Shown piece by piece: positions 3,089 through 52,138 of a stretch of 64,000 nt of DNA. Position 1 is the stretch's first letter; each line of letters opens with the position of its first letter. The position numbers and the translations under genes were made by a program. The notes under the pieces were generated by a model, which searched no databases, was not told the origin of the DNA, and was given only the letters and a program-made list of their open reading frames with translations. Origin of the DNA: Candidatus Nanopelagicales bacterium (GTDB lineage: Bacteria > Actinomycetota > Actinomycetes > S36-B12); the NCBI GenBank assembly GCA_044360385.1, contig JBIKKK010000001.1, positions 21,101-85,100 on the forward strand. The letters run 5' to 3'.

Positions 3089-4266
3089 ACGTCGTCGACG
3101 CCATTGTCCTCGCCGCGATCGTGGTCTTCGCCTGGACGGGATGGCGCCAGGGCTTCGTCGCGGGCCTGCTCTCCTTCGGTGGCTTTCTCATCGGAGCCCT
3201 TACGGCCGCGCTGTTGCTGCCTCGCGTACTCGAAGGCTTGGCGCTGCCGGGCTTCCTCGGTGCCGTCATCCTCGCGACGGCGATCCTCGTGGCGGCTCTC
3301 GCGGGCCAGACCCTCGCCTCGTTCCTGGGGCGCCGCCTGCGCTCTGGGATGACGTGGAAGGGAGTGCAGGTCGTGGATAGCGCGGCGGGGGCGGCACTCA
3401 ACGTCGTCGCCCTCGCGGTCGTCCTATGGATCATCGCGACCGCTGTCGGTCTGGTGCCGAGTCTCGCTGTCGCTCGTGAGATCCGCTCCTCGCTCGTCTT
3501 GCGGACCCTCGACTCCGCCGTGCCCGACCGTGCGCGCGACCTCTTCTCGGGACTGCGCAATGCCGTGGATGCCTCGGGACTGCCGCGGGTCTTCTCGGGA
3601 CTCGGCCAGTACGCCGGACCGCAGGTGCCCGCGCCCAATGATCGTCTCCTGAGGGACCCAGCCATCCGCGCGGCGTGGCCATCACTCGTCAAGGTCACCG
3701 CTGTCGCCTGCGATGCCGTCGTCACCGGGTCAGGCTTCGCCTACGCGTCGGGTCGGATTCTCACCAACGCGCATGTCATCGCGGGCTCGGAGCAGCCGAG
3801 CGTGCGTATCCCCGGAGACCCATTGAGCTACGCCGCGACAGTCGTGGCCACCGATCCGCGACTCGATCTTGCCGTGCTACGCGTCGACGGACTCCCCGCG
3901 CCGCCACTTGCCTTCGCCACGCGCGCGGCCGAGACGGGAGACAGCGCTGTCGTCGCGGGATTCCCCGGCGGTGGCGATCTCGAGGCTGAGGCGGCGCGCA
4001 TCCGCGCGCGTATCGATGCTCGCGGAGAAGACATCTACGGGCGCTCCGGTGTCGTGCGCGATGTCTACTCTTTCCGCGGTACCGTCGTACCGGGCAACTC
4101 GGGTGGTCCGCTTCTCGCTCCCAACGGACGCGTCTACGGGGTGGTCTTCGCTGCAGGCCTCGGCGAGGAGGAGACCGGCTACGCGATCACCGCAGAGCAG
4201 GCGGCCCCGCTGGCCGCGCAGGGTGTCACGGCCTCGGACGCCGTCGATACCGGCCGCTGCCGCTAG
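3085..4266 (+). CDS. marP: MarP-like membrane serine protease (CvpA-type TM domain plus trypsin-like S1 domain)
   Basis: The N-terminus has about 4 TM helices (VVDAIVLAAIVVFAWTGW...). The C-terminal catalytic triad contexts are TNAHVIAG, DLAVLRV and PGNSGGPLL. GTG 3085 overlaps the NUDIX stop (GTGA). Confidence 0.8.
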   Translation: MNVVDAIVLAAIVVFAWTGWRQGFVAGLLSFGGFLIGALTAALLLPRVLEGLALPGFLGAVILATAILVAALAGQTLASFLGRRLRSGMTWKGVQVVDSAAGAALNVVALAVVLWIIATAVGLVPSLAVAREIRSSLVLRTLDSAVPDRARDLFSGLRNAVDASGLPRVFSGLGQYAGPQVPAPNDRLLRDPAIRAAWPSLVKVTAVACDAVVTGSGFAYASGRILTNAHVIAGSEQPSVRIPGDPLSYAATVVATDPRLDLAVLRVDGLPAPPLAFATRAAETGDSAVVAGFPGGGDLEAEAARIRARIDARGEDIYGRSGVVRDVYSFRGTVVPGNSGGPLLAPNGRVYGVVFAAGLGEEETGYAITAEQAAPLAAQGVTASDAVDTGRCR

Positions 4267-4649
4267 ACGTCGTTCGCGCCGCAGGGGACGGTCAGGGAGT
4301 TGATGAGCGATTGGGTGGCGTCGTCCACGGGACCGGCGTACTCCTCGATGCTCACCTGACCCCGCGCAATGAGCCGTGAAGCGCCCACCGGGTTGCCGCG
4401 GGCCGCGTGCGTCACCCCCGCGGCTGCCTGGGCGAGGCCGCGCCACAGCATCCGCTCGTCAGCGGGGCAGCAGCGCCAGCGCATCTCGAGCACTTCGTGA
4501 GCGTGGAAGGGGAGACCCTGGTCCAGATACGCCGTGGCCTCGTCGATGGCCTCGCGAGATGTGATGTGCTCTCGCTGGTGAACGCCGGGATAGCCGACGG
4601 CATCCGGGGCCAGCGGGCGACCGAGCCGGTCGCGGGGCCTCTCAGTCAC
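4263..4649 (-). CDS. DUF309 domain protein
   Basis: Matches the DUF309 pattern as I recall it: FHAHEVLEMRW...WRGLAQAAAGVTHAARGNPVGA. The GTG start overlaps the upstream hydrolase stop by 8 nt. Confidence 0.7.
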   Translation of the reverse strand: MTERPRDRLGRPLAPDAVGYPGVHQREHITSREAIDEATAYLDQGLPFHAHEVLEMRWRCCPADERMLWRGLAQAAAGVTHAARGNPVGASRLIARGQVSIEEYAGPVDDATQSLINSLTVPCGANDV

Positions 4650-5562
4650 GGGGCAGGCCGGCCAGCCAACTCAACACGAGCGCGTCGAAGTGCTCCGGTG
4701 CCTCCTCGTGTGGGAAGTGGCCGACGGAGTCGATGACGCGGAATTCGTACGGCCCGTGCACCCACTCGCCGGAACCCTCGGCACTGCGCAGGAGCACGGA
4801 GGGATCCTCGGCGCCGTGAATGTGGAGCACCGGGACCTCGATGGGCGTCTCCATGCGATGGCCGTAGCGGACACCGTCGGTGCGCACGAGCGAGCGCAGC
4901 GCCCAGCGGTGGTACTCGACTGCGCAATGAGCAGTCGGCCACAGGGAAAAGGCGGAACGATAGGCGAGCGCGGTCTGGGCATCGGGCCACCCCGGTGTCG
5001 CCGACCACGACTGCAGGATCTCGGCGACGCGGGAGCAGTCGTCTGCCATGAGCGAGCGCTCGGGCAGGAAGGGCCATTGGAAGCCCACGGCGTAGAGAGC
5101 CTGTCGACGTTGGATGGCATCCCGCACGATGGCCGCCCGGAAGCGCCGCGGGTGCGGCATGGACACCGGGACGATGGCATCCACCACCTCGGGATCGAGT
5201 ACGGCCATGCTCCACGCGATCAGGCCGCCCCAGCCGTGGCCCATCACGGTCGCCGATGGCTCGCCGAGGCTGCGAATCACGCCCGCGACGTCGCGGGAGA
5301 GGGTCGTGGGGTCGTAGCCGTGCGGGGTGTGGTCTGAGCCGCCGTAGCCCCGCAGGTCCATGGCGACGACCCGGTAGCCGGCGTCGACGAACGTGCGGAG
5401 TTGATGTCGCCAGGACCACCAGAGGGTGGGGAAGCCATGAAGCAAGACCACGAGCGGACCTTCGCCGGCCTCGACGATGTGGAAGCGCGCTCCGTTAGCG
5501 GAAACCTCACGATGTGCCCAGGGACCGGGCGCGCGGATGATGACGTCTGGATCGAGGAGCAC
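4642..5562 (-). CDS. Alpha/beta hydrolase, epoxide-hydrolase-like (EphE-like)
   Basis: HGFPTLWWSWRHQL oxyanion region, nucleophile elbow MGHGWGG, and C-terminal GHFPHEE. Confidence 0.8.
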   Translation of the reverse strand: MLLDPDVIIRAPGPWAHREVSANGARFHIVEAGEGPLVVLLHGFPTLWWSWRHQLRTFVDAGYRVVAMDLRGYGGSDHTPHGYDPTTLSRDVAGVIRSLGEPSATVMGHGWGGLIAWSMAVLDPEVVDAIVPVSMPHPRRFRAAIVRDAIQRRQALYAVGFQWPFLPERSLMADDCSRVAEILQSWSATPGWPDAQTALAYRSAFSLWPTAHCAVEYHRWALRSLVRTDGVRYGHRMETPIEVPVLHIHGAEDPSVLLRSAEGSGEWVHGPYEFRVIDSVGHFPHEEAPEHFDALVLSWLAGLPRD

Positions 5563-41241: not shown

Positions 41242-43035
41242 ATGACTGAGACCCCGCCCCTGCGTCGACGTACCTTCCTCGGCCTTGCCGCTGGTGCGAC
41301 GGCGGGTGCCGCAGCCGCGGCCGCCATGCCCGCAACGAGTGCGACTGCCGCCCCCGCTGAGCCCGCGGCGCGTGCCGCGTGGCCGGGCAAGCAGGCCTGG
41401 GAGCAGTTGCGCCGCCAGGTCGGTGGTCGCCTCATTCGCCCGAATCAGCCATGGGCCAACCTCAAGCCCGGGGTCGACGTACCCGCGAAGTTTAAGAACC
41501 CGTGGTACCTCGAGGAGCAGGCAGGCGCGACTCAGTCGACCGGTATGTACAAAGCATGGCAGTCCACGCCCAGCGGGTACGCCGTCGCCGCGGAGAGCGG
41601 CAAGGACATCCAGGCAGCAGTCAACTTCGCGCGTAGGAATGGCGTGCGCCTCGTGGTCAAGGGCACGGGCCACGACTACTACGGTCGCTCCTGTGGCCCT
41701 CGCAATTCCCTGCTCATTTGGACGCACAACATGCGCCAGGTCAGCGTGCACGACTCCTTCGTGCCCAAGGGTGCACCTCCGGGCATGCCCGGCGTCCCCG
41801 CGGTGACGACGACGGCGGGCAATCGTTGGCTCGAGGCCTACAAGATCGCCTCGGCCAACGGTCTCTACATCCAAGGCGGCGGATGCACGAGCGTCGGCGC
41901 GTGCGGTGGCTTCGCTCTCGGTGGCGGCTTCGGCTCCTTCAGCAAGCGCTTCGGCAGTGGTGCCGGGGGCGTCCTCGAGTTGACCGTAGTCCTCGCCAGC
42001 GGCAAGATCGTTACGGCGAACACCTACCAAAACGACGACCTCTACTGGGCCCTGCGCGGAGGCGGCGGTGGCACCTTCGGTGTTGTCACGCGCATGACCT
42101 ACCTCGCGCATCCCGAGCCCACCATCTCGGGCTGGATCGGCGGGCCCATCACTGCCAAGTCGGATACGGCGTACTTCGAGCTCCTCCAGCGTTACGTCGA
42201 GTTCGCAGGATCGACGCTGACCGATCCCAAGTGGGGCGAGGGCGTGATCCTCAATGAGGCTTATGCGATGGCCGAGGAGTTCGATACCGGGCTCAACGTC
42301 ATGCAGGTCGGCACGACGTTCCTCGACATCACGACTGAGGCGGCCCAGACTGCCTGGGAGCCCTTCCTCGCACCCTTGCGAGCGCGCCCGGAGGACTTCA
42401 CCGTCGACGTGAAGTTCAGCTCCCAGCCCTTCCGCAACCGGTGGAATCCGACCACCCGCGAGGCGATCTTTGACACCCGGCGGAATGCGCCCGCGGGCTA
42501 CTTCTGGTGGACCGGCAATGCGGCTGAGGTGGGCGCCTACTGGGGTGCCTATGACGGGCGTGGCGTGCCGTGGTCCATGACGCAGGGCGCCAAGGCGCGC
42601 GAGCTGGCCCAGGGGCTCTTCGATGCCTCGCGCACGTCGCTCATTCTTTGGCAGACCAACAAAGCGCTCTATGGCGAAGACCCCGAGGCTAAGGAGCGCG
42701 ATCTCACGACGTCGATCAACCCCGCGGTCTTCGACAACGTCGCCTTCATCACGGTCGGCGCGTGGAAGCAGTCGAAGTACCCGGGTGTCGAGGGGCACGA
42801 GCCGGATCGCACCGTCTCGCAGTCGCAGTACGACGGCGTGATGGCAGCGTCAGCGGCCATCCACAAGGCCACGCCGGGCGGCGGGTCCTACTCAAATGAG
42901 GGCAACTACTTCCAGAAGGGCTGGCAACGGGAGTTCTGGGGAAGCAACTACCGCCGTCTGCTCTCGATCAAGAAGAAGTACGACCCCACGAACCTCTTCA
43001 CGGTGCACAAGGGCGTAGGGAGCGAGGGCTACTAG
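41242..43035 (+). CDS. TAT-exported FAD-linked oxidase, berberine-bridge-enzyme-like (VAO/PCMH family)
   Basis: Twin-arginine signal RRRTFLGLAAGATAGAAAAAAMPATSATA. KGTGHDYYGRS (His of 8-alpha-histidyl-FAD types), GGCTSVGACGGFALGGGFG (Cys of 6-S-cysteinyl types), and a C-terminal BBE motif YDPTNLFTVHKGVGSEG. Confidence 0.85.
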   Translation: MTETPPLRRRTFLGLAAGATAGAAAAAAMPATSATAAPAEPAARAAWPGKQAWEQLRRQVGGRLIRPNQPWANLKPGVDVPAKFKNPWYLEEQAGATQSTGMYKAWQSTPSGYAVAAESGKDIQAAVNFARRNGVRLVVKGTGHDYYGRSCGPRNSLLIWTHNMRQVSVHDSFVPKGAPPGMPGVPAVTTTAGNRWLEAYKIASANGLYIQGGGCTSVGACGGFALGGGFGSFSKRFGSGAGGVLELTVVLASGKIVTANTYQNDDLYWALRGGGGGTFGVVTRMTYLAHPEPTISGWIGGPITAKSDTAYFELLQRYVEFAGSTLTDPKWGEGVILNEAYAMAEEFDTGLNVMQVGTTFLDITTEAAQTAWEPFLAPLRARPEDFTVDVKFSSQPFRNRWNPTTREAIFDTRRNAPAGYFWWTGNAAEVGAYWGAYDGRGVPWSMTQGAKARELAQGLFDASRTSLILWQTNKALYGEDPEAKERDLTTSINPAVFDNVAFITVGAWKQSKYPGVEGHEPDRTVSQSQYDGVMAASAAIHKATPGGGSYSNEGNYFQKGWQREFWGSNYRRLLSIKKKYDPTNLFTVHKGVGSEGY

Positions 43036-44234: not shown

Positions 44235-45080
44235 TCACGAGGACAGGCTCTCCTCCAGGGCCCGGCGCATGACCTCGGCGTCCAGGTCGTGCCCGGTCCA
44301 CAGCCGCGCGTTGGTGAGCGCCTGATTGACCAGCATGCCGAGCCCCTGGAGTGTCGTGGCCCCGCGCGCGGCCGCGCGCTGCAGGAAGACCGTGTCGGGC
44401 GGGTTGGCGACGACGTCCGCGACCACCATGCCAGCGCGAATGCTCGTCTCCGCAACGTCCGGAGTGTCCGTGCTGGGAAAGAAGCCGATGGACGTCGCGT
44501 TGACGAGGATGTCGACCCCTTCGGGGACGGCGTAGGTGCCCGACCATGCCACAAAGGCACTGTCGGCAGGTGTGCGATCGCTCACCAGCGCGGCAAGTTC
44601 CTCGCCCCGGTCGCGGGTGCGGTTGACGATCGTGATGGAGCGGGCTCCGGCGAGTGCGGACTCCACCGCGATCGCGCGTGCGGCGCCACCGGCTCCCAGC
44701 ACGACCATGTCGCGTCCGGAAGGATCGATCACCGTGCGCAGCGAGCGGACGAAGCCCTGGCCGTCGGTGTTCTCACCGGTGAGGTGGCCATCGCGATTGA
44801 TGACGCAGTTGACCGCGCCGATGATCCCGGCAGAGGGAGCCATGGCATCGAGGTAATCGAGGATCGCCACCTTGTGGGGTATCGAGCAATTGAAGCCGAG
44901 CCAGCCCATGCCGATCGCACCGCGCACCGCATCCTCGAGGCGCTCGGGCGGCACCTCGCAGTTGATGTAGCGGACATCGAGTCCGGCATGGGCATACGCC
45001 GCCTCCATGACGGCGACGGTCGGGTTCTGTGCCGCCGACGTGGCGAAGGACCCGGTTAGGTCAGCGAGGAATCCGGTCAC
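44235..45080 (-). CDS. Shikimate/quinate dehydrogenase family protein
   Basis: NCSIPHK, NTDGQGF and a GAGGAARA NAD(P) site. GTG start preceded by GAGGAGGG. Confidence 0.8.
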   Translation of the reverse strand: MTGFLADLTGSFATSAAQNPTVAVMEAAYAHAGLDVRYINCEVPPERLEDAVRGAIGMGWLGFNCSIPHKVAILDYLDAMAPSAGIIGAVNCVINRDGHLTGENTDGQGFVRSLRTVIDPSGRDMVVLGAGGAARAIAVESALAGARSITIVNRTRDRGEELAALVSDRTPADSAFVAWSGTYAVPEGVDILVNATSIGFFPSTDTPDVAETSIRAGMVVADVVANPPDTVFLQRAAARGATTLQGLGMLVNQALTNARLWTGHDLDAEVMRRALEESLSS

Positions 45081-45110
45081 GCTGCCCTCCTCTCGATCGA
45101 GGGGAGCCTA

Positions 45111-45902
45111 GTGGTCCATGATGCGCGCATGGCGAGCATTGGATTCCTGGGCGTGGGCACGATCTCGGAGGCGATGGTGCGGGCGATGGCCGCGCGCGAC
45201 CACTCCGCCGACTCGCTCCTGCTCTCACCGAGGTCCGCGGAGCGATCGGAGCGACTCGCTGCCGAGTTCGCGCAGTGCGAGCGGCTCGACTCCAATCAGG
45301 AGGTCATCGATGCGAGCGACATCGTCGTGCTCGGTATGCGTCCGCAGCAGGTTGATGAGGCGCTGGCCGGGTTGACCTTCCGGGGTGACCAGGTGATCGC
45401 GAGTCTCATCGCGGGCACCCCGCCCAGCGGCATCGCACCGCTCGTGTCGCCTGCGACCCGCGTGTGTCAGCTCATCCCGCTTCCCGCAATCGCGCTGCGT
45501 CGAGGTCCGCTCGTGATCAGTCCGCCGCTGCCCGAGGTGGTGTCGGCGATGCGCGGCCTGGGCGAGATCGTCACCCTTGAAGACGAGTCCCTCATCCGGA
45601 CCTTGAGCTGCGCCTCGGCCTTCATGTCGACCTATTACGAGATGCAGAATTCACTCATCGACTGGATCGCCGCCCAGGGCATCGACGAGGCGACCGCATC
45701 GCGCTATGTCCGGGCCGAGCTCGATGGCTTGGCTGCCGTCGGATGGGTGACTCCCGATGCCGAGCGGCCCGAGCTCCCCGGCGAGCACCAGACCAAGGGG
45801 GGACTCAACGAGCGCGTGCGTGCTCGCCTCCTCGAGATCGGGTGGTTCGACAATCTCGTCGGTGCCATCGACGACGTCTATCGCACGGTCTCACTGCGCT
45901 AG
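45111..45902 (+). CDS. Pyrroline-5-carboxylate-reductase-like NAD(P)-binding oxidoreductase
   Basis: Rossmann N-terminus IGFLGVGTISEAMV and a ProC-like C-terminal dimerisation region. The start is GTG 45111 (GGGGAG 4 nt upstream) or ATG 45129. Confidence 0.65.
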   Translation: MVHDARMASIGFLGVGTISEAMVRAMAARDHSADSLLLSPRSAERSERLAAEFAQCERLDSNQEVIDASDIVVLGMRPQQVDEALAGLTFRGDQVIASLIAGTPPSGIAPLVSPATRVCQLIPLPAIALRRGPLVISPPLPEVVSAMRGLGEIVTLEDESLIRTLSCASAFMSTYYEMQNSLIDWIAAQGIDEATASRYVRAELDGLAAVGWVTPDAERPELPGEHQTKGGLNERVRARLLEIGWFDNLVGAIDDVYRTVSLR

Positions 45903-45986
45903 AGGAGCGGAGAAGTCGAGCCGGACCCGTTGGCCTTGACCGGCGCTAGGGATGCCCTTGCTGGGGCCGACACCTATAGTCGAGTG

Positions 45987-48458
45987 ATGCGCGTCATTCT
46001 CGGGGGCACTATGGCTGCCCTCGTCGCGCTCGCTTCGCTCTCGGCGCCGCAGGCCGCGCTCGCGCAGGTGGAGCCCGTCGCGATGATGCTCGCAGGCGGC
46101 CCCACCTCAGCGATGGATCCCACTCCGGTGCAACTCGATGCGGATGTGTATGTCCCCGAGGTCACGCCTGCGCCTGCTGTCCTGCTCGCCCATGGCTTCG
46201 GCGGGAGCAAGGAGGGCACCGCGGAGGAAGCCCAACTCCTCGCCGAGGTAGGTTTCGTCGTGCTCGCCTACACCGCGCGCGGCTTCGGCGAGTCCACCGG
46301 ACTCATCTCGATGAACGCACCCGACTTCGAGGTGGCCGACGCCTCCGCGCTGATCGACTACCTCGCGAGCCTGGCCAGCGTGACCTCAGAGTCACCGGGC
46401 GATCCCGTGGTGGGTGTCGGCGGTGGTTCCTACGGCGGTGCGCTCGCACTCCTGCTCGCCGGCTACGACGAGCGGGTGGACGCCGTGGCCGCCGACATCA
46501 CCTGGAACGACCTCGAGACGTCGCTCTTCGCCCAGTCCGCGGTGGAAGGAGCGCAGCCGGGAGTGCTCAAGAGCCTGTGGACCTCGCTCTTCTTCTCCTC
46601 CGGGCTCGGTCTCGAGCCCGGCCAGCCGGTCTCGGAGTGCGGGCGCTTCACTCCGGAGTGGTGCGCGGCGTACGTCGAGGCGGTCACTCGGGGCGTCGTG
46701 TCGCCCGAGGCCTCTGCCCTCATGGCGCAGTCGTCGCCCCGGAGCATCGCGGACCGCATCACGGCGCCGGTGCTGCTGGGTGCGGGGCAGGCCGACTCGC
46801 TCTTCCCGCTCATGCAGGCCAATGCCAACGCCGAGCAGATCGTCAACGCCCCGGTCAAGGTGGTGTGGCACGCGGGCGGCCACGACGGGGGCATCGCCGA
46901 AACCGACCGCCTGCGCTCACTGAGCAGCGCGTGGTTTGACCAGCACCTGCGCGGTGGGCCCGCGGTGAGTGACGCATTCGAGGTGTCGCTCGTCGAGGCC
47001 TCCGCGCTTAGTGACCGCGATCCGGGCACCGTGGAGGTGCTCTCCTCTCCGGCATACCCGGGGATCTTCGGCGACGGCACGGTCGAGATGCCCGTGCTCG
47101 CGCCAGCGCAGCAGGTGCTTGCTCCGGCGGGGGGTGCGCCGGCGGCGATTACGTCGCTGCCGGGGGCTGGGGGTCTCGCGAGCCTTGCCGGCGACTTCCT
47201 CTCCGTGCCCCTGCCGGGACAGACAGCCGGGTTCTTCACCGAAGCGCTTCCCGAGTCGATGCGGATCGTCGGCGCTACGCGCGCGCGATTGTCGGTGAGC
47301 AGCGATCGTCCCGTCGACGAAGCGGTCCTCTTCGCCTCGTTGCGCATCGTGGGCGCCAATGGCCGTCAGACCCTGCCGCAGGGGCTGGTGGCGCCGATCC
47401 GCATTCCCGATCTCGGACCTGAGCCTGTCACCGTCGATGTCGTGTTGCCCGGCGTAGTCACCCAGGTCGCGGCGGGCGACCGCCTTGCGCTGGTCGTCGC
47501 GACCACCGACCAGGGCTACCGCATGCCACCGGGTCCCGCGGTCTACACCGTCGCTGCTGACGGCCCGATCTTCTTGCCCACCCTGCAGGGAAGCACGTCT
47601 GCCGTGGGCACTCCGCCGTGGGTCTGGCCGCTGGGTGCGCTCATCATCACGGCCCTGATCTGGCTGGGCGTCGCGCTCCTGCGCCCGCGCGATCGCGAAG
47701 GAGAGGCCCGGCCCGATCTTGCCGGGGTCCCGCTCGCGACGCGCGACCTCGCCAAGGAGTTCAAGGGCGGGCTCCGTGCCGTCGACGGCGTGACCTTCGA
47801 TGTGCCGCCGGGCGTCGTGCTGGGGCTCCTCGGCCCCAATGGCGCGGGTAAGACGACGACCATGCGCATGGCGATGGGTCTTATTCGTCCGACGAGCGGT
47901 GACACGTGGATCTTCGGCGAGCATGTGCGCCCCGGCGCACCGGTGCTCGCGCGGGTGGGCAGCTTCATCGAAGGCCCCGGCTTCCTCCCGCACCTCACGG
48001 GGCGGCAGAACCTGGATCTCTTCTGGCGGGCGAGCGGGCGCGAGGGCGGTGATCCGCATCTCGAGGAGGTGCTTGAGATCGCCGGGCTCGGCACCGCGGT
48101 GGACAGGAAGGTGCGCACCTATAGCCAGGGCATGCGCCAGCGTCTTGGCATCGCGCAGGCGATGCTCGGGCTGCCTGACCTGCTGGTGCTCGATGAGCCC
48201 ACAAATGGCCTCGATCCACCGCAGATCCGCGAGATGCGCCAGGTCATGCACGACTACGCCGCTTCGGGCAAGACAGTGATCGTGTCATCGCACCTCCTGG
48301 GAGAGGTGGAGCAGACCTGCTCGCACGTCGTGGTGATGGACCACGGCAACCTGATCTACTCCGGGACCGTCGACGAGCTTCTCGCCGGCCGTAGCGGCCT
48401 GCGTCTCGAGGATGTCTTCCTCGAACTCGTGGGGGAAGGGCACCGGGTGGATCAGTGA
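45987..48458 (+). CDS. Fusion protein: exported CocE/NonD (S15 X-Pro dipeptidyl-peptidase-like) hydrolase, one TM helix, ABC ATPase
   Basis: Signal peptide ...APQAALA|QV. Hydrolase motifs LLAHGFGGSKE and nucleophile GGGSYGG, with a PepX_C-like beta domain. TM WVWPLGALIITALIWLGVALL followed by RPRDREGE. ABC motifs: Walker A GPNGAGKTTT, signature YSQGMRQRL, Walker B LLVLDEPTNGLD. Confidence 0.8.
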   Translation: MRVILGGTMAALVALASLSAPQAALAQVEPVAMMLAGGPTSAMDPTPVQLDADVYVPEVTPAPAVLLAHGFGGSKEGTAEEAQLLAEVGFVVLAYTARGFGESTGLISMNAPDFEVADASALIDYLASLASVTSESPGDPVVGVGGGSYGGALALLLAGYDERVDAVAADITWNDLETSLFAQSAVEGAQPGVLKSLWTSLFFSSGLGLEPGQPVSECGRFTPEWCAAYVEAVTRGVVSPEASALMAQSSPRSIADRITAPVLLGAGQADSLFPLMQANANAEQIVNAPVKVVWHAGGHDGGIAETDRLRSLSSAWFDQHLRGGPAVSDAFEVSLVEASALSDRDPGTVEVLSSPAYPGIFGDGTVEMPVLAPAQQVLAPAGGAPAAITSLPGAGGLASLAGDFLSVPLPGQTAGFFTEALPESMRIVGATRARLSVSSDRPVDEAVLFASLRIVGANGRQTLPQGLVAPIRIPDLGPEPVTVDVVLPGVVTQVAAGDRLALVVATTDQGYRMPPGPAVYTVAADGPIFLPTLQGSTSAVGTPPWVWPLGALIITALIWLGVALLRPRDREGEARPDLAGVPLATRDLAKEFKGGLRAVDGVTFDVPPGVVLGLLGPNGAGKTTTMRMAMGLIRPTSGDTWIFGEHVRPGAPVLARVGSFIEGPGFLPHLTGRQNLDLFWRASGREGGDPHLEEVLEIAGLGTAVDRKVRTYSQGMRQRLGIAQAMLGLPDLLVLDEPTNGLDPPQIREMRQVMHDYAASGKTVIVSSHLLGEVEQTCSHVVVMDHGNLIYSGTVDELLAGRSGLRLEDVFLELVGEGHRVDQ

Positions 48459-49342
48459 GCACCGTCATGGAGACGCCGAATCCGGGCGGGACGGCAGAGC
48501 CGTCCACGTCGAGTTACGCCGCGCGCAAGACCCTCACTGTCCGCGTCGAGCTCGTCCGCCAACTGCGTCGTCGGCGCACCCTCGTCGCCTTCGGCCTGGC
48601 TGTTGCCCTGCCGCTCATCGTGGTCGCGGCCGTCAAGCTGGGCCCGGAGTCTCGTGGCTTCGGCGACGGAGATCTTGATCTTGTCGGACTTGCGACAGCT
48701 GGACCGTGGAACTTCACCCTCACGATGCTGCTCTTCGCGTCGGGATTCCTCCTCACGATCATCGCGGCGATGTTCCTCGGCGACACGGTGGCGAGCGAGG
48801 CATCGTGGTCGACGATGCGCTATCTGCTGGCAGCGCCGGTGCCACGGCGCAGGTTCCTGCGCGCCAAGATGATCGTCGGCCTCATCCTTACCGTTGCCAC
48901 CCTGGTCATCCTCATCGCCGTGTCCTTCGGCATCGCCCTCGTTGTCTTCGGGTCGGCACCGCTCACGAGCCCCCTGGGCGGGTCCTTCGACGTCGCGACC
49001 TCGTGGCAGCGCTTGGGCATCGTGACTATCTACATCGCGATCCAATTGCTCATCCCCGCGGGGATCGCGTTCCTCATGAGCGTGTTGACCGATGTGCCCC
49101 TGGGAGCGGTTGGTGCCGCGGTCGTCATCGTGATCGTCCTCAACATCATTGATGCCATCGACGCCCTCGGTGACTTGAGGAGGCTCCTCCCCACCGACTA
49201 CGGCGGTTCCTGGGCGGATGCGCTCGGCCAGCAGATCGCCTGGGACGACATGGCGATAGGCGCGTCCTACGCCGTCGTGACCTTCGCCGTGCTCGCAGCC
49301 ATCGCCTTCCTGCGCTTCGATCGCAAGGACATTCTCTCCTAG
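48455..49342 (+). CDS. ABC-2-type transporter permease
   Basis: 295 aa, 6 TM helices with a large first loop. GTG 48455 overlaps the stop of the fusion gene (GTGA). Confidence 0.75.
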   Translation: MSTVMETPNPGGTAEPSTSSYAARKTLTVRVELVRQLRRRRTLVAFGLAVALPLIVVAAVKLGPESRGFGDGDLDLVGLATAGPWNFTLTMLLFASGFLLTIIAAMFLGDTVASEASWSTMRYLLAAPVPRRRFLRAKMIVGLILTVATLVILIAVSFGIALVVFGSAPLTSPLGGSFDVATSWQRLGIVTIYIAIQLLIPAGIAFLMSVLTDVPLGAVGAAVVIVIVLNIIDAIDALGDLRRLLPTDYGGSWADALGQQIAWDDMAIGASYAVVTFAVLAAIAFLRFDRKDILS

Positions 49343-49354
49343 TCTGAGTAGTCA

Positions 49355-49383
49355 CCTGGTCTGGCAGGATGAACCAGACCAGG
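49355..49383 (+). terminator. Hairpin between ABC-2 permease and MFS gene
   Basis: 10-bp stem CCTGGTCTGG / CCAGACCAGG with a 9-nt loop. The 3' arm abuts the MFS ribosome-binding site AGGGAGGG. Confidence 0.45.
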
Positions 49384-49391
49384 GAGGGAAC

Positions 49392-50996
49392 ATGGCAACC
49401 GATGCCGCCGCCGGCACCACTCAAGCGCCGGCTCGGGCCGGGATCGTCCTCACCGCGCTGATCCTCGCCGCCATCGTGGCCAACCTCAACCTCAGCGTCG
49501 CCAACGTCGCGCTGCCGGACATCGGCAGGGCGCTCGAGGCCGGGCAGACCGAGATCAACCTCATCGCCATCGGATGCACGCTCGGCCTCGCGATGTCCGT
49601 GCTCTACCTCGGCGCCCTGGGCGATCGCTACGGCCGCAAGCTCATGCTCATGCTCGGCATGATGCTCACCCTGCCCGCCAGCGCTATTTCTGCCTGGGCG
49701 CCCAACGACATCATCCTCATCGGAGGGCGCATCTTCACAGGCGTCGCGGCTGGCCTGGCCTATCCGACGACGCTCGCACTGATCACGGCCCTGTGGGGCC
49801 CGACCCGGGCCAGGGTCAAGGCAATCGCCCTGTGGTCAGGCATCGGGAGCGGGGGCGCGGTGCTCGGTCCTGTCATCGCCGGAGCACTCCTGGAGTGGTT
49901 CTGGTGGGGGTCGGTCTTCCTCATCGCCGTCCCACCCGCGGTGATTGCCCTCGTGCTGGTGTGGAAGTTCGTGCCCGCCCACGTCAATGAGTCCACCGAT
50001 CCGGTCGACAACCTCGGCGGCATCCTCTCGGTCGTCATGATTGCCGCCCTCGTCCTCGGCCTGAGCACCGTCGCCGCTCCCGGGCAGTTCGCGTCCTCCC
50101 TCGCCCTGATGGGGCTCGCCCTCGTCGTGGGCGTGCTCTTCATCATCCGGCAGCGCCGAGCGCGCAATCCGCTCTACGACCTCAACTATGCGGCTCGTCG
50201 GCTCTTCTGGGTTGCTGCCATCAGCGGCATGATCGTCTTCGGATCGCTCATGGGCTCGCTCTTCATCGGGCAGCAGTTCCTCCAGGACGTCCTCGCGTAT
50301 TCGACACTTTCTGCAGGCCTTGCCGTCCTGCCGGCGGCGTTCATGATGATGGCCGTCTCACCCCTGTCCGCACGCATGATCAATGCCCTCGGGTCTCGTG
50401 ACACTCTCCTGATCGGCACCGGCCTGGTGGTCGTCGGTTTCGTCGTCATGCTGGTGGTTTGGGGAGAGGGCACGCCGTACTGGGAGGTGGGCATCGCCTA
50501 CGCGCTGGTCGGAGCGGGCGTCGGCATCGCACTTGCACCTGCCTCGAGGGCGTTGACCAGTTCCGTGCCAGTCGACCGCGTGGGCATGGCTTCGGCCACC
50601 TCGGACCTGCAGCGTGACCTGGGCGGTTCGATCATGCAGGCCCTCTTGGGGTCACTGCTCACCGCCGGCTACGCCACCGCCATGGCCAAGCAGATTGGTG
50701 AGAGTTCCGAGGCCTCGCAGATCACGTCCGAGACGCAGGCTTCCCTGCAGAAGTCCTTCACCACAGCACAGTCCCTGAGCGAGCAGTACCCGCAGTACGC
50801 GAGTCAGATCGTCGAGGCTGCGCGGCAGTCGTTCCTCACGGGAGCCAACTGGGCCTACGCCGCAGCGATTGCAGCGGGCCTCATTGCCATGGTGATCGTG
50901 CGCATGGCGTATCCCGGCAAGGCCGGGGAGACCGCCCTCCTCGCGGAGTACGCCAAGGAGGACTCCGCCGCGCCGGCGGCCAAGACGGGCGGCTAG
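49392..50996 (+). CDS. MFS transporter, DHA2 (EmrB/QacA, 14-TMS) type
   Basis: 534 aa, 14 predicted TM helices, with motif-A-like GALGDRYGRK and an N-terminal LNLSVANVALPDI typical of DHA2. Confidence 0.85.
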   Translation: MATDAAAGTTQAPARAGIVLTALILAAIVANLNLSVANVALPDIGRALEAGQTEINLIAIGCTLGLAMSVLYLGALGDRYGRKLMLMLGMMLTLPASAISAWAPNDIILIGGRIFTGVAAGLAYPTTLALITALWGPTRARVKAIALWSGIGSGGAVLGPVIAGALLEWFWWGSVFLIAVPPAVIALVLVWKFVPAHVNESTDPVDNLGGILSVVMIAALVLGLSTVAAPGQFASSLALMGLALVVGVLFIIRQRRARNPLYDLNYAARRLFWVAAISGMIVFGSLMGSLFIGQQFLQDVLAYSTLSAGLAVLPAAFMMMAVSPLSARMINALGSRDTLLIGTGLVVVGFVVMLVVWGEGTPYWEVGIAYALVGAGVGIALAPASRALTSSVPVDRVGMASATSDLQRDLGGSIMQALLGSLLTAGYATAMAKQIGESSEASQITSETQASLQKSFTTAQSLSEQYPQYASQIVEAARQSFLTGANWAYAAAIAAGLIAMVIVRMAYPGKAGETALLAEYAKEDSAAPAAKTGG

Positions 50997-52138
50997 TAGC
51001 TGAAGGGCCAGGCCTTGAAGTAGTTACGCAATCGCAGCCATAGTCCGTAGAGCCCACGTGGCTCGAGGATGAGGAAGAGGATGATCAGCAGGCCGAAGAT
51101 GATGGTCTGAAGCTCGAAGACATTGAGCAGGCCACCTTCGCCGATGCCACCGAATCCGGGGATGAAGCCGGTGAGGGTGTTGACCAGCTTGGGCAGCATG
51201 ACGACGAAGATCGCACCCATGATCGAGCCGGTGATGGTCGCGAGGCCGCCAATGAAGACGACGGCGAGGAAGTCAATAGAGAGGAAGATATTCCACGTCT
51301 CCGGCGAGATGCGGCCGATGACGATCGAGAGCAGTGCTCCGGAGATGCCCGCGTAGAAGGACGAGACGGTGAAGGCGAGCGACTTGGTGCGCAAGAGTGA
51401 TACACCCATCACCTCGGCGGCCACGTCGCGGTCGCGAACCGCAGCGAAGTTGCGGCCGTAGCGGGAGCGCACGAAGTTGCGTGCGCCGAAGGCCATGACG
51501 AGGAAGATCACCAGGCACGCGACGTAGAAGACGGTGAAGCGATCAATGCGATAGCCGAGGATCGTCTGGTTGGAGAAGAGGTCGAAGCCGAGGAAGACCG
51601 GCTCCGCTGGCGCACGACCCACGCCGGCTCCGCCGGTGATCGGCTTGGCCTCCTTGAAGATGTGCTCGCCGATGAAGACCAGGCCGAGGGTGAGGATCGC
51701 GAGGTAGAGACCACGCACTCTTGCCGCCAGGGGGGCGAGCACGAAGGCCACGAGTGCGGGCACGAGTCCGGCAAGGGGCAGCCAAATGACCATGTCGAGC
51801 CCAAGACCGATGACGTCACCTTGAGCCTCGCCGCCCAGGACAGCAGCGGTGTAGGCGCCCACGCCCATGAAGAACGCCTGGCCCAGGGAGACCTGCCCGG
51901 CGTACCCCGTGAGGACATTGAGACCGATGCCTCCGATAGCGAAGATGAGGACTGTCGTGAGCAGTGCGACCCAGTCGCGCGTGAGGAAGAACGGGATGAT
52001 CGCCATGGCGATGATCCCGACGATGACCCAATTGCGCTTGACGCGAGTGTTGAAGATCGCCATCTCGCGCGAGTAGCTGGTGAAGAGCTGCGGGCGTCCC
52101 TTGACCGTGCGAAGTGACTCCTTGGTCGCGGTGGTCAT
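50993..52138 (-). CDS. Branched-chain-amino-acid-type ABC permease (LivM-like)
   Basis: LivM-type TM pattern with GQVSLGQAFFMGVGAYT. The tracked ORF is trimmed to MTTATKE (ATG 52138), which overlaps the livH-like stop (ATGA). Confidence 0.85.
   Translation of the reverse strand: MTTATKESLRTVKGRPQLFTSYSREMAIFNTRVKRNWVIVGIIAMAIIPFFLTRDWVALLTTVLIFAIGGIGLNVLTGYAGQVSLGQAFFMGVGAYTAAVLGGEAQGDVIGLGLDMVIWLPLAGLVPALVAFVLAPLAARVRGLYLAILTLGLVFIGEHIFKEAKPITGGAGVGRAPAEPVFLGFDLFSNQTILGYRIDRFTVFYVACLVIFLVMAFGARNFVRSRYGRNFAAVRDRDVAAEVMGVSLLRTKSLAFTVSSFYAGISGALLSIVIGRISPETWNIFLSIDFLAVVFIGGLATITGSIMGAIFVVMLPKLVNTLTGFIPGFGGIGEGGLLNVFELQTIIFGLLIILFLILEPRGLYGLWLRLRNYFKAWPFSY

Follow-up and report, generated by a model that had tools for sequence, protein, structure and literature searches.

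Introduction

ATP-binding cassette (ABC) ATPases are regarded either as subunits in the cytoplasm or as parts of a polypeptide that also contains their own transporter domain. In ZmaM, EdeA and PamJ, an extracytoplasmic ClbP-like peptidase is fused to an ABC half-transporter, activating a prodrug on export (PMC9889268). Family 3.A.1.145 of the TCDB contains ABC-2 permeases fused to an M1 peptidase, for instance Q1D520, and is functionally uncharacterised (PMC3924187). Here, we describe a two-gene module from a 64,000-nucleotide stretch of the genome of a Candidatus Nanopelagicales bacterium (contig JBIKKK010000001.1; the whole stretch is called the window, and coordinates count from its first letter). 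Its first gene encodes a predicted catalytic ectodomain joined through a single helix to an ABC ATPase, and its second gene an ABC-2 permease.

The fusion protein resembles the ZmaM type in the covalent link between a serine hydrolase predicted to be extracytoplasmic and an ABC exporter module, a layout in which cleavage would come after export. The peptidase of the ZmaM type, however, belongs to the beta-lactamase superfamily (PF00144), whereas the window protein has an alpha/beta hydrolase; the ZmaM type is fused to a complete ABC half-transporter, the window protein to the ATPase alone, with its ABC-2 permease separate; and the ZmaM type is found in biosynthetic clusters, mostly of Firmicutes (PMC9889268), while the neighbours of the window module are non-biosynthetic. 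Membership of the ZmaM type was rejected on the last two grounds and because a Pfam scan contained no beta-lactamase/S12 domain. With TCDB 3.A.1.145 the module shares the fusion of a hydrolase to a component of an ABC-2 system, but there a permease with 13 transmembrane (TM) segments carries a zinc M1 peptidase at its C-terminus (PMC3924187), and here an ATPase carries a serine alpha/beta hydrolase at its N-terminus; membership was rejected for this reason. The fusion family differs from both in every component and in the fusion partner. A literature search returned no paper on a fusion of an S15 or alpha/beta hydrolase to an ATPase; subscription journals lay outside this search, and a prior description is possible. 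An earlier reading of the window from its letters alone (the original prediction) knew of no characterised example, which holds for the exact architecture but not for hydrolase-ABC fusions more broadly (ZmaM, EdeA and PamJ, PMC9889268; TCDB 3.A.1.145, PMC3924187).

Taken by itself, the ectodomain is like cocaine esterase (CocE) and the lipase PaL in its three-part fold, consisting of an alpha/beta core, a helical cap and a jelly-roll, and in its Ser-Asp-His order. The matches to CocE and PaL (506 and 570 residues) leave the TM helix and the ATPase of the fusion protein outside, and, unlike them, the fusion protein has a conserved Cys pair and a conserved Gly/Ala/Pro loop.

On the transporter side, NosDFY is similar in two respects: NosF and NosY rank with the nearest relatives of known structure for the ATPase and the permease, and the permease bears an extracytoplasmic protein. 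NosD, however, is a separate beta-helix protein with neither a TM tether nor hydrolase activity, and NosDFY serves the assembly of a copper centre. PmtCD and LanFEG-type systems are ABC-2 modules expelling amphipathic, membrane-active peptides from the membrane, and PmtCD is a top fold match of the permease. In nisin resistance, the extracellular serine protease NSR is paired with the ABC transporter NsrFP. Any hydrolase in these peptide systems is a protein of its own, and NsrFP represents another ABC type (BceAB). The ABCA transporters, to which the ATPase is most similar by score, have the type-V fold and large lipid-handling extracellular domains; their ectodomain is placed between TM1 and TM2 and is non-enzymatic, and the whole transporter is one polypeptide. 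In FtsEX and MacB (type VII), the permease has four TM helices, the first two of which flank a large extracytoplasmic domain. Membership of this last type was rejected, the permease of the window having six TM helices, short outer loops and matches to ABC-2 families.

A genuine and widespread hydrolase-ATPase fusion

The hydrolase-ATPase fusion is confirmed as real, and it is found across Actinomycetota. In the window, the 823-residue protein is encoded by an unbroken open reading frame (ORF) on the + strand, from an ATG at 45987 to a TGA at 48456-48458 (Table 1). Peptidase_S15 matches residues 48-299 (E = 3.7e-18, 66.6 bits against a Pfam gathering cut-off of 23), PepX_C residues 412-517 (E = 1e-11, 45.6 bits against 22.5) and ABC_tran residues 600-740 (E = 9.1e-26, above the gathering score). 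Hydropathy is strongly hydrophobic only at residues 1-21 and 544-568. The domain order and the motifs quoted in the original prediction are all present: LLAHGFGGSKE at residues 66-76, GGGSYGG at 145-151, the TM helix at 545-565, followed by RPRDREGE at 566-573, and, in the ATPase, the Walker A motif GPNGAGKT at 616-623, the signature YSQGMRQR at 712-719, the Walker B motif LLVLDEP at 732-738 and the H-loop SSHLL at 767-771, which contains His769.

An in-frame TTG upstream, at 45930, would give a protein of 842 residues (19 more); the orthologue alignment favours the ATG at 45987. The representative of the public protein cluster (P0001) is called from this TTG, and including the stretch 45930-45986 would bury the signal peptide.

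The fused ORF occurs in more than 240 protein clusters. The 120 closest, at 62-100% identity, all contain ABC and hydrolase domains in proteins of around 790-870 residues; the only one lacking PF02129 is a partial record, which still has PepX_C and ABC_tran. A search seeded with a Streptomyces orthologue yielded 120 further clusters, all of them fused and nearly all named Streptomyces records. Their usual RefSeq name is 'alpha/beta fold hydrolase'; this name and the alternative, 'ABC transporter ATP-binding protein', each hide half of the protein. In a species-level scan, for which one genome per species was taken, 80 loci were returned, and in all 80 retrieved genomes the match covers both halves of the protein (46-87% identity). 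These loci come from metagenome-assembled genomes (MAGs) labelled Nanopelagicales or Ilumatobacteraceae and from cultured Rhodococcus, Williamsia, Streptomyces, Kitasatospora, Actinomadura, Amycolatopsis, Saccharothrix, Lentzea, Nonomuraea, Microbispora and Geodermatophilus. The taxa with the fusion also include Acidimicrobiia and Tsukamurella; in a complete replicon of the Tsukamurella tyrosinosolvens NCTC13231 assembly, annotated with the Prokaryotic Genome Annotation Pipeline (PGAP), the same gene pair is present with a 4-nucleotide overlap. Tractable genera, Streptomyces and Rhodococcus among them, share the arrangement.

Clustered at 50% identity, 342 representatives match the ectodomain at E <= 1e-30. 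Among those of at least 780 residues, 42 of 48 have a TM helix and a Walker A motif, the latter usually about 70-90 residues past the start of the helix. Of the short matches that might pass for stand-alone hydrolases, one (P0122) is cut by the end of its contig and another (P0138, at locus L083) has an apparent one-base frameshift at the junction; the remainder are distant paralogues, at about 35% identity, with other anchors. No convincing split version of the fusion was found among the short matches traced, the contexts of P0219, P0246 and P0248 being too short to show ABC genes that might follow.

That an assembly or sequencing artefact has joined two genes is next to inconceivable, being refuted by the conserved fused ORF. 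The reading frame is continuous, with a third-codon-position GC content of 0.84-0.85 that is uniform over the fusion gene and the permease gene, the alignment of orthologues is colinear through the helix and the linker, and the fused ORF is also present in complete chromosome records among the retrieved genomes, as well as in the complete Tsukamurella replicon. Nothing in the window speaks for an artefact, and what can be cited in its favour is a low-GC relative, L083, with its apparent junction frameshift. The original prediction would have fallen had orthologues proved to be two separate genes, with a stop or frameshift at the junction; it stands, because the orthologues are consistently fused in the clusters, in the genomes and in Tsukamurella.

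At L083 (positions 3800-4700 of a Logan assembly with 43% GC), the hydrolase-TM ORF stops just past the helix, and the ATPase is in another frame that is open upstream. The junction looks like a one-base frameshift; the locus might be misassembled, a pseudogene or truly split.

Fold and active site of the ectodomain

The best structural match of the ectodomain in Foldseek is PaL lipase (8yzo, for which no publication was found), with an E-value of 7.8e-27 and a TM-score of 0.71 relative to the target, followed by cocaine esterase (1ju3, E = 8.3e-21). Phmmer also aligns the ectodomain with PaL over residues 81-528 (E = 2.3e-14). Identity to CocE and PaL is 16-21%, and the fusion protein reaches 53 bits for the NCBIfam CocE_NonD family (TIGR00976), under the cut-off of 66.3; because of this, the ectodomain is assigned to a distant branch of the CocE/NonD superfamily, as judged by sequence. 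The beta-lactam acylases mentioned in the original prediction resemble the ectodomain only at the level of the superfamily; among solved structures, PaL (an esterase/lipase) and cocaine esterase come nearest, and the CocE/NonD cut-off is not reached.

Residue conservation is given for 69 orthologues, and that of the AxA motif of the signal peptide for 24. Ser148, Asp270 and His299 are each 100% conserved and form a predicted Ser-Asp-His triad in canonical order, with a GxSxG nucleophile elbow. His295, unlike His299, is a histidine in at most 35% of the orthologues. In the AlphaFold2 model of the fusion protein, with a mean predicted local distance difference test (pLDDT) score of 75.9, Ser148 is placed after the strand 142-146 and at the start of the helix 148-160, aligning with the GxSxG motif of PaL. 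Asp270 comes after the strand 262-264 and aligns with the DSLFP motif of PaL, while His299 comes after the strand 290-294 and aligns with its GDH motif.

Two further features stand out. Cys218 and Cys226 are 98.5% and 100% conserved, respectively, and the pair is at the same place in five non-fused or short relatives whose sequences were compared. The Gly/Ala/Pro-rich loop of residues 373-412 contains many invariant residues and is among the most conserved parts of the ectodomain, with pLDDT below 50 at residues 383-411. Its role may be that of a lid, or it may provide a surface that contacts the permease or the membrane.

The ATPase and its permease partner

The ATPase contains the complete set of ABC motifs (Walker A, signature, Walker B with its glutamate, and H-loop), and Lys622, Asp736, Glu737 and His769 are each 100% conserved. 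From their sequences, both the hydrolase and the ATPase look active. The closest solved nucleotide-binding domains (NBDs) are those of ABCA4 (E = 2.4e-50), further ABCA3, ABCA7 and ABCA1, TM0544, NosF (E = 6.4e-38) and Rv1218c. Assignment to the lantibiotic-protection ATPases (TIGR03740) and to the DrrA ATPases (TIGR01188) was rejected, at 179 bits against a cut-off of 309.75 and 178.6 bits against 312.45, respectively. In the usual ABC-2 layout the ATPase is either separate and soluble or fused to its own permease; the fusion ATPase departs from this in carrying a TM helix and an ectodomain of 515 residues.

The ATPase occurs in two forms. That of the window type ends about 50-65 residues past the H-loop, while the other (L025, L062, L080 and about 40 other loci, in Streptomyces, Rhodococcus and many others) has around 60 extra residues before a final LEDxFL, which are probably a C-terminal regulatory domain.

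The permease ORF (48455-49342) begins at a GTG that overlaps the TGA of the fusion gene, as GTGA. Its product matches PF12730 (ABC2_membrane_4) and PF12679 (ABC2_membrane_2) above the cut-off, confirming what had been read from the window alone, and both families are also matched at E <= 0.01 by 15 of 15 permease orthologues tested. In the AlphaFold2 model (pLDDT 68), six of the long helices are interpreted as membrane-spanning, and the outer loops are short. Fold matches are weak: NosY and PmtCD come top (E = 0.08-0.25, probability 0.96-0.99), then ABCG, ABCA and Wzm, all of them type-V transporters; over these top matches E is 0.08-1 and the TM-score about 0.45, for a model of this pLDDT. 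Neither a single-sequence nor a profile search of the permease against the sequences of solved structures gave a match.

A permease homologue is directly downstream of the fusion gene in 78 of 81 loci, the other three loci ending at a contig edge, and across loci the two genes often overlap by 4 nucleotides. The conserved unit consists of two genes, fusion and permease.

Topology and the membrane helix

The evidence that the hydrolase is outside and the ATPase inside, the topology also predicted originally, comes along four independent lines and is strong but indirect. Most orthologues have an N-terminal hydrophobic segment, and an AxA-type motif is found at one alignment column in almost all of the 24 orthologues aligned there; a hydrophobic segment with a conserved AxA signal-peptide cleavage motif argues for export of the hydrolase, as does the near-invariant Cys pair. 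Directly past the TM helix, Arg566 is 97% conserved, and, by the positive-inside rule, the basic residues at this place suggest that the ATPase is cytoplasmic. Among non-fused relatives of the ectodomain (about 35% identity), P0246, P0203, P0209 and P0240 carry an LPXTG sortase signal at the C-terminus, and P0219, P0248, P0151 and P0227 a TM helix and a basic tail; these anchors also place the hydrolase outside. The ectodomain family is thus predicted to be displayed on the surface by three kinds of anchor.

The sequence of the TM helix is variable, with a mean column conservation of 0.39, like that of the signal peptide, against 0.79 for the ATPase. Its position is not: the helix lies 35-44 residues past Asp508 of the beta-sandwich in all 69 orthologues, and is 46-57 residues ahead of Walker A in 67 of them. 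A linker of variable length between helix and ATPase was considered and rejected on these measurements, the length being constrained.

Variability of the helix would fit a fusion that brought about co-localisation and nothing else. The gene for a C-terminally anchored hydrolase would have fused to the one following it, with the ATPase as a part of the anchor or an aid to co-expression and the two activities uncoupled; a precursor of this kind is suggested by relatives that have a C-terminal TM anchor but lack the ATPase. The fusion has nevertheless been kept across distant Actinomycetota at 46-65% identity, the short matches traced include no convincing split version, the junction lengths are fixed and the permease is always the next gene, often with the 4-nucleotide overlap. 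On balance, uncoupled activities seem unlikely.

The tightly constrained lengths on both sides of the helix are, by contrast, what a transfer of force or position would lead one to expect. As in NosDFY or FtsEX, ATP in the cytoplasm might move the permease and the tether helix to open, close or reposition the outer hydrolase, with no transport taking place. In the same reading, the protein would be an ATP-powered surface enzyme, with the energy of ATP gating or driving the hydrolase, a substrate buried in lipid being drawn into the active site, for instance. The fusion partner is the ATPase rather than the permease, and the solved proteins most closely related to ATPase and permease include NosF and NosY, which also speaks for this possibility. 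However, the core of the helix is poorly conserved, the short outer loops of the permease leave no large ectodomain like those of FtsX and MacB, and the relatives of the ectodomain make do with plain anchors, so the enzyme itself needs no energy. We regard such mechanotransmission as unlikely, albeit the chief alternative to the mechanism proposed below. If ATP does gate the hydrolase, the idea known from FtsEX and NosDFY would be extended to a covalently tethered enzyme, and an ATP-powered surface enzyme would represent a widespread way for Actinomycetota to spend cytoplasmic energy on extracellular catalysis.

Proposed mechanism

The reading we tentatively prefer, and to which we give a little less than an even chance, is that a type-V ABC module expels or extracts an amphiphilic ester or amide compound, which the tethered hydrolase cleaves at the outer face of the membrane. 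The two genes would form one machine, most likely of two fusion proteins and two permeases. Inside, a dimer of the type-V (ABC-2) permease would carry two ATPase domains for ATP binding and hydrolysis, and a single helix with its short linker of constant length would tether each of them to a serine hydrolase right at the outer face of the membrane. The ABC-2 module would take the ester- or amide-bearing compound from the membrane or the cytoplasm, and the hydrolase (or acyl-transferase) would cleave it at the point of exit, so that export and hydrolysis would be coupled in space and in stoichiometry. The two functions suggested in the original prediction, a resistance device that degrades a compound outside and pumps it out, and an exporter coupled to processing, are likewise hypotheses. 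Candidate substrates are a common envelope lipid or peptide, or a foreign membrane-active compound. An exporter-type module is suggested by the similarity of the NBD to ABCA, NosF and Rv1218c and of the permease to NosY and PmtCD, and an esterase-like activity by PaL lipase and CocE being the best structural matches. The analysis establishes which domains are present, the conservation of the fusion and the gene pair, the intact catalytic residues of both enzymes and the fixed junction lengths; from these and the other observations we infer the topology, an assembly of 2:2, the transport direction, the coupling and the class of substrate.

Several points weigh against coupled export and hydrolysis. 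In NosDFY, which comes closest among the solved ABC-2 systems, the module probably powers a partner in the periplasm and does not export a solute. Catalysis by serine hydrolases takes place without an energy source, which leaves the fusion to an ATPase specifically unaccounted for, and a helix of such variable sequence would equally suit a simple anchor. The fold match of the permease is weak (E about 0.1) and its model only moderately confident, the catalytic loops 266-272 and 298-301 of the fusion protein model are of low confidence, and the genomic neighbourhood offers no consistent pathway clue.

If coupling of export or extraction to hydrolysis is true, it would constitute a new layout for handling amphiphiles at the Gram-positive membrane, and would be relevant to the turnover of envelope lipids and to the intrinsic resistance of cells against membrane-active esters and peptides.

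Genomic context

Across clades, no neighbour besides the permease gene is conserved. Genes next to the pair are specific to clades and include uvrB, TerC, S9 peptidase, helicase and RES-domain genes, and no biosynthetic cluster around the module was seen among the neighbours of the examined loci. This bears on the possibility of maturation as in ZmaM, in which an inactive precursor with an ester or amide cap would be exported and then activated by the tethered hydrolase. Such a process has a precedent in the characterised prodrug-activating peptidase-ABC fusion (PMC9889268), but the uvrB, TerC, helicase and S9 peptidase neighbours are non-biosynthetic and vary by clade, the module also occurs in aquatic MAG lineages, including the locus of 43% GC, and all the domain folds differ from those of ZmaM. 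We consider it very unlikely. Given the wide, vertically inherited distribution and the missing biosynthetic context, a housekeeping or defensive clearing role would fit better than the maturation of a specialised natural product.

Table 1. Features of the fusion gene, the permease gene and the adjoining transporter gene in the window.
Feature	Coordinates	Strand	Residues or motif	Basis or remark
Signal peptide; signal anchor in some orthologues	45987..46064	+	1-26, MRVILGGTMAALVALASLSAPQAALA/Q	Hydrophobic 1-21, AxA motif; cleavage predicted
Ectodomain: alpha/beta hydrolase core with helical cap, and PepX_C-like beta-sandwich	46065..47609	+	core and cap ~48-330; beta-sandwich ~412-541	Pfam, Foldseek, phmmer
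Predicted nucleophile	46428..46430	+	Ser148, G-G-S-Y-G elbow	Conservation, model, PaL alignment
Probable disulfide in cap (inferred)	46638..46664	+	Cys218 and Cys226, CGRFxPxWC	Conservation
Predicted catalytic acid	46794..46796	+	Asp270, DSLFP	Conservation, model, PaL alignment
Predicted catalytic base	46881..46883	+	His299, GGHDGG	Conservation, model, PaL alignment
Gly/Ala/Pro-rich loop	47103..47222	+	373-412, QQVLAPAGGxPAAITSLPGAGG...	Orthologue conservation
Single TM helix	47619..47681	+	545-565	Hydropathy; model helix 546-565
Basic linker, predicted cytoplasmic	47682..47732	+	566-582, RPRDREGEARPDLAGVP	Arg566 97% conserved; constrained length
ABC nucleotide-binding domain and stop	47733..48458	+	583-823	ABC_tran
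Walker A (in NBD)	47832-47855	+		
Signature (in NBD)	48120-48143	+		
Walker B (in NBD)	48180-48200	+	with Glu737	
H-loop histidine (in NBD)	48291-48293	+	His769	
ABC-2 permease, six TM helices	48455..49342	+	295 residues	Pfam ABC2_membrane_4, ABC2_membrane_2
DHA2-type major facilitator superfamily (MFS) efflux protein; possible associate, outside the core unit	49392..50996	+		NCBIfam TIGR00711, below cut-off

For the MFS protein encoded downstream of the permease, the best NCBIfam match reaches 208 bits against a cut-off of 230. A DHA2 homologue adjoins the gene pair in 13 loci of two clades and in different arrangements (the window, L001-L003, L019, L022, L026-L028, L031, L036, L052 and L067): in the clade of the window the gene is downstream on the same strand, and in Actinomadura/Spirillospora-type loci it is divergent. 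Seven loci of the latter type have a TetR gene directly upstream of the fusion gene. The adjacency of DHA2 and TetR genes may point to co-regulation with efflux, though the hint is a weak one, DHA2 genes being common in these genomes.

A scan of 44900-51300 for promoters and terminators found none, and an Rfam scan of the window gave no matches. The 49-nucleotide gap between the permease and MFS genes contains a perfect 10-bp inverted repeat, CCTGGTCTGG-N9-CCAGACCAGG (49355-49383), followed closely by a GGGAGGG ribosome-binding site. The window has a single copy and 100 shuffles had none; L001, the closest relative, does not share the repeat. An operator and an RNA hairpin are both conceivable. 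Further upstream in the window, at 41242-43035, an ORF of 597 residues starts with a twin-arginine-like signal (RRRTFLGLAAGATAG...).

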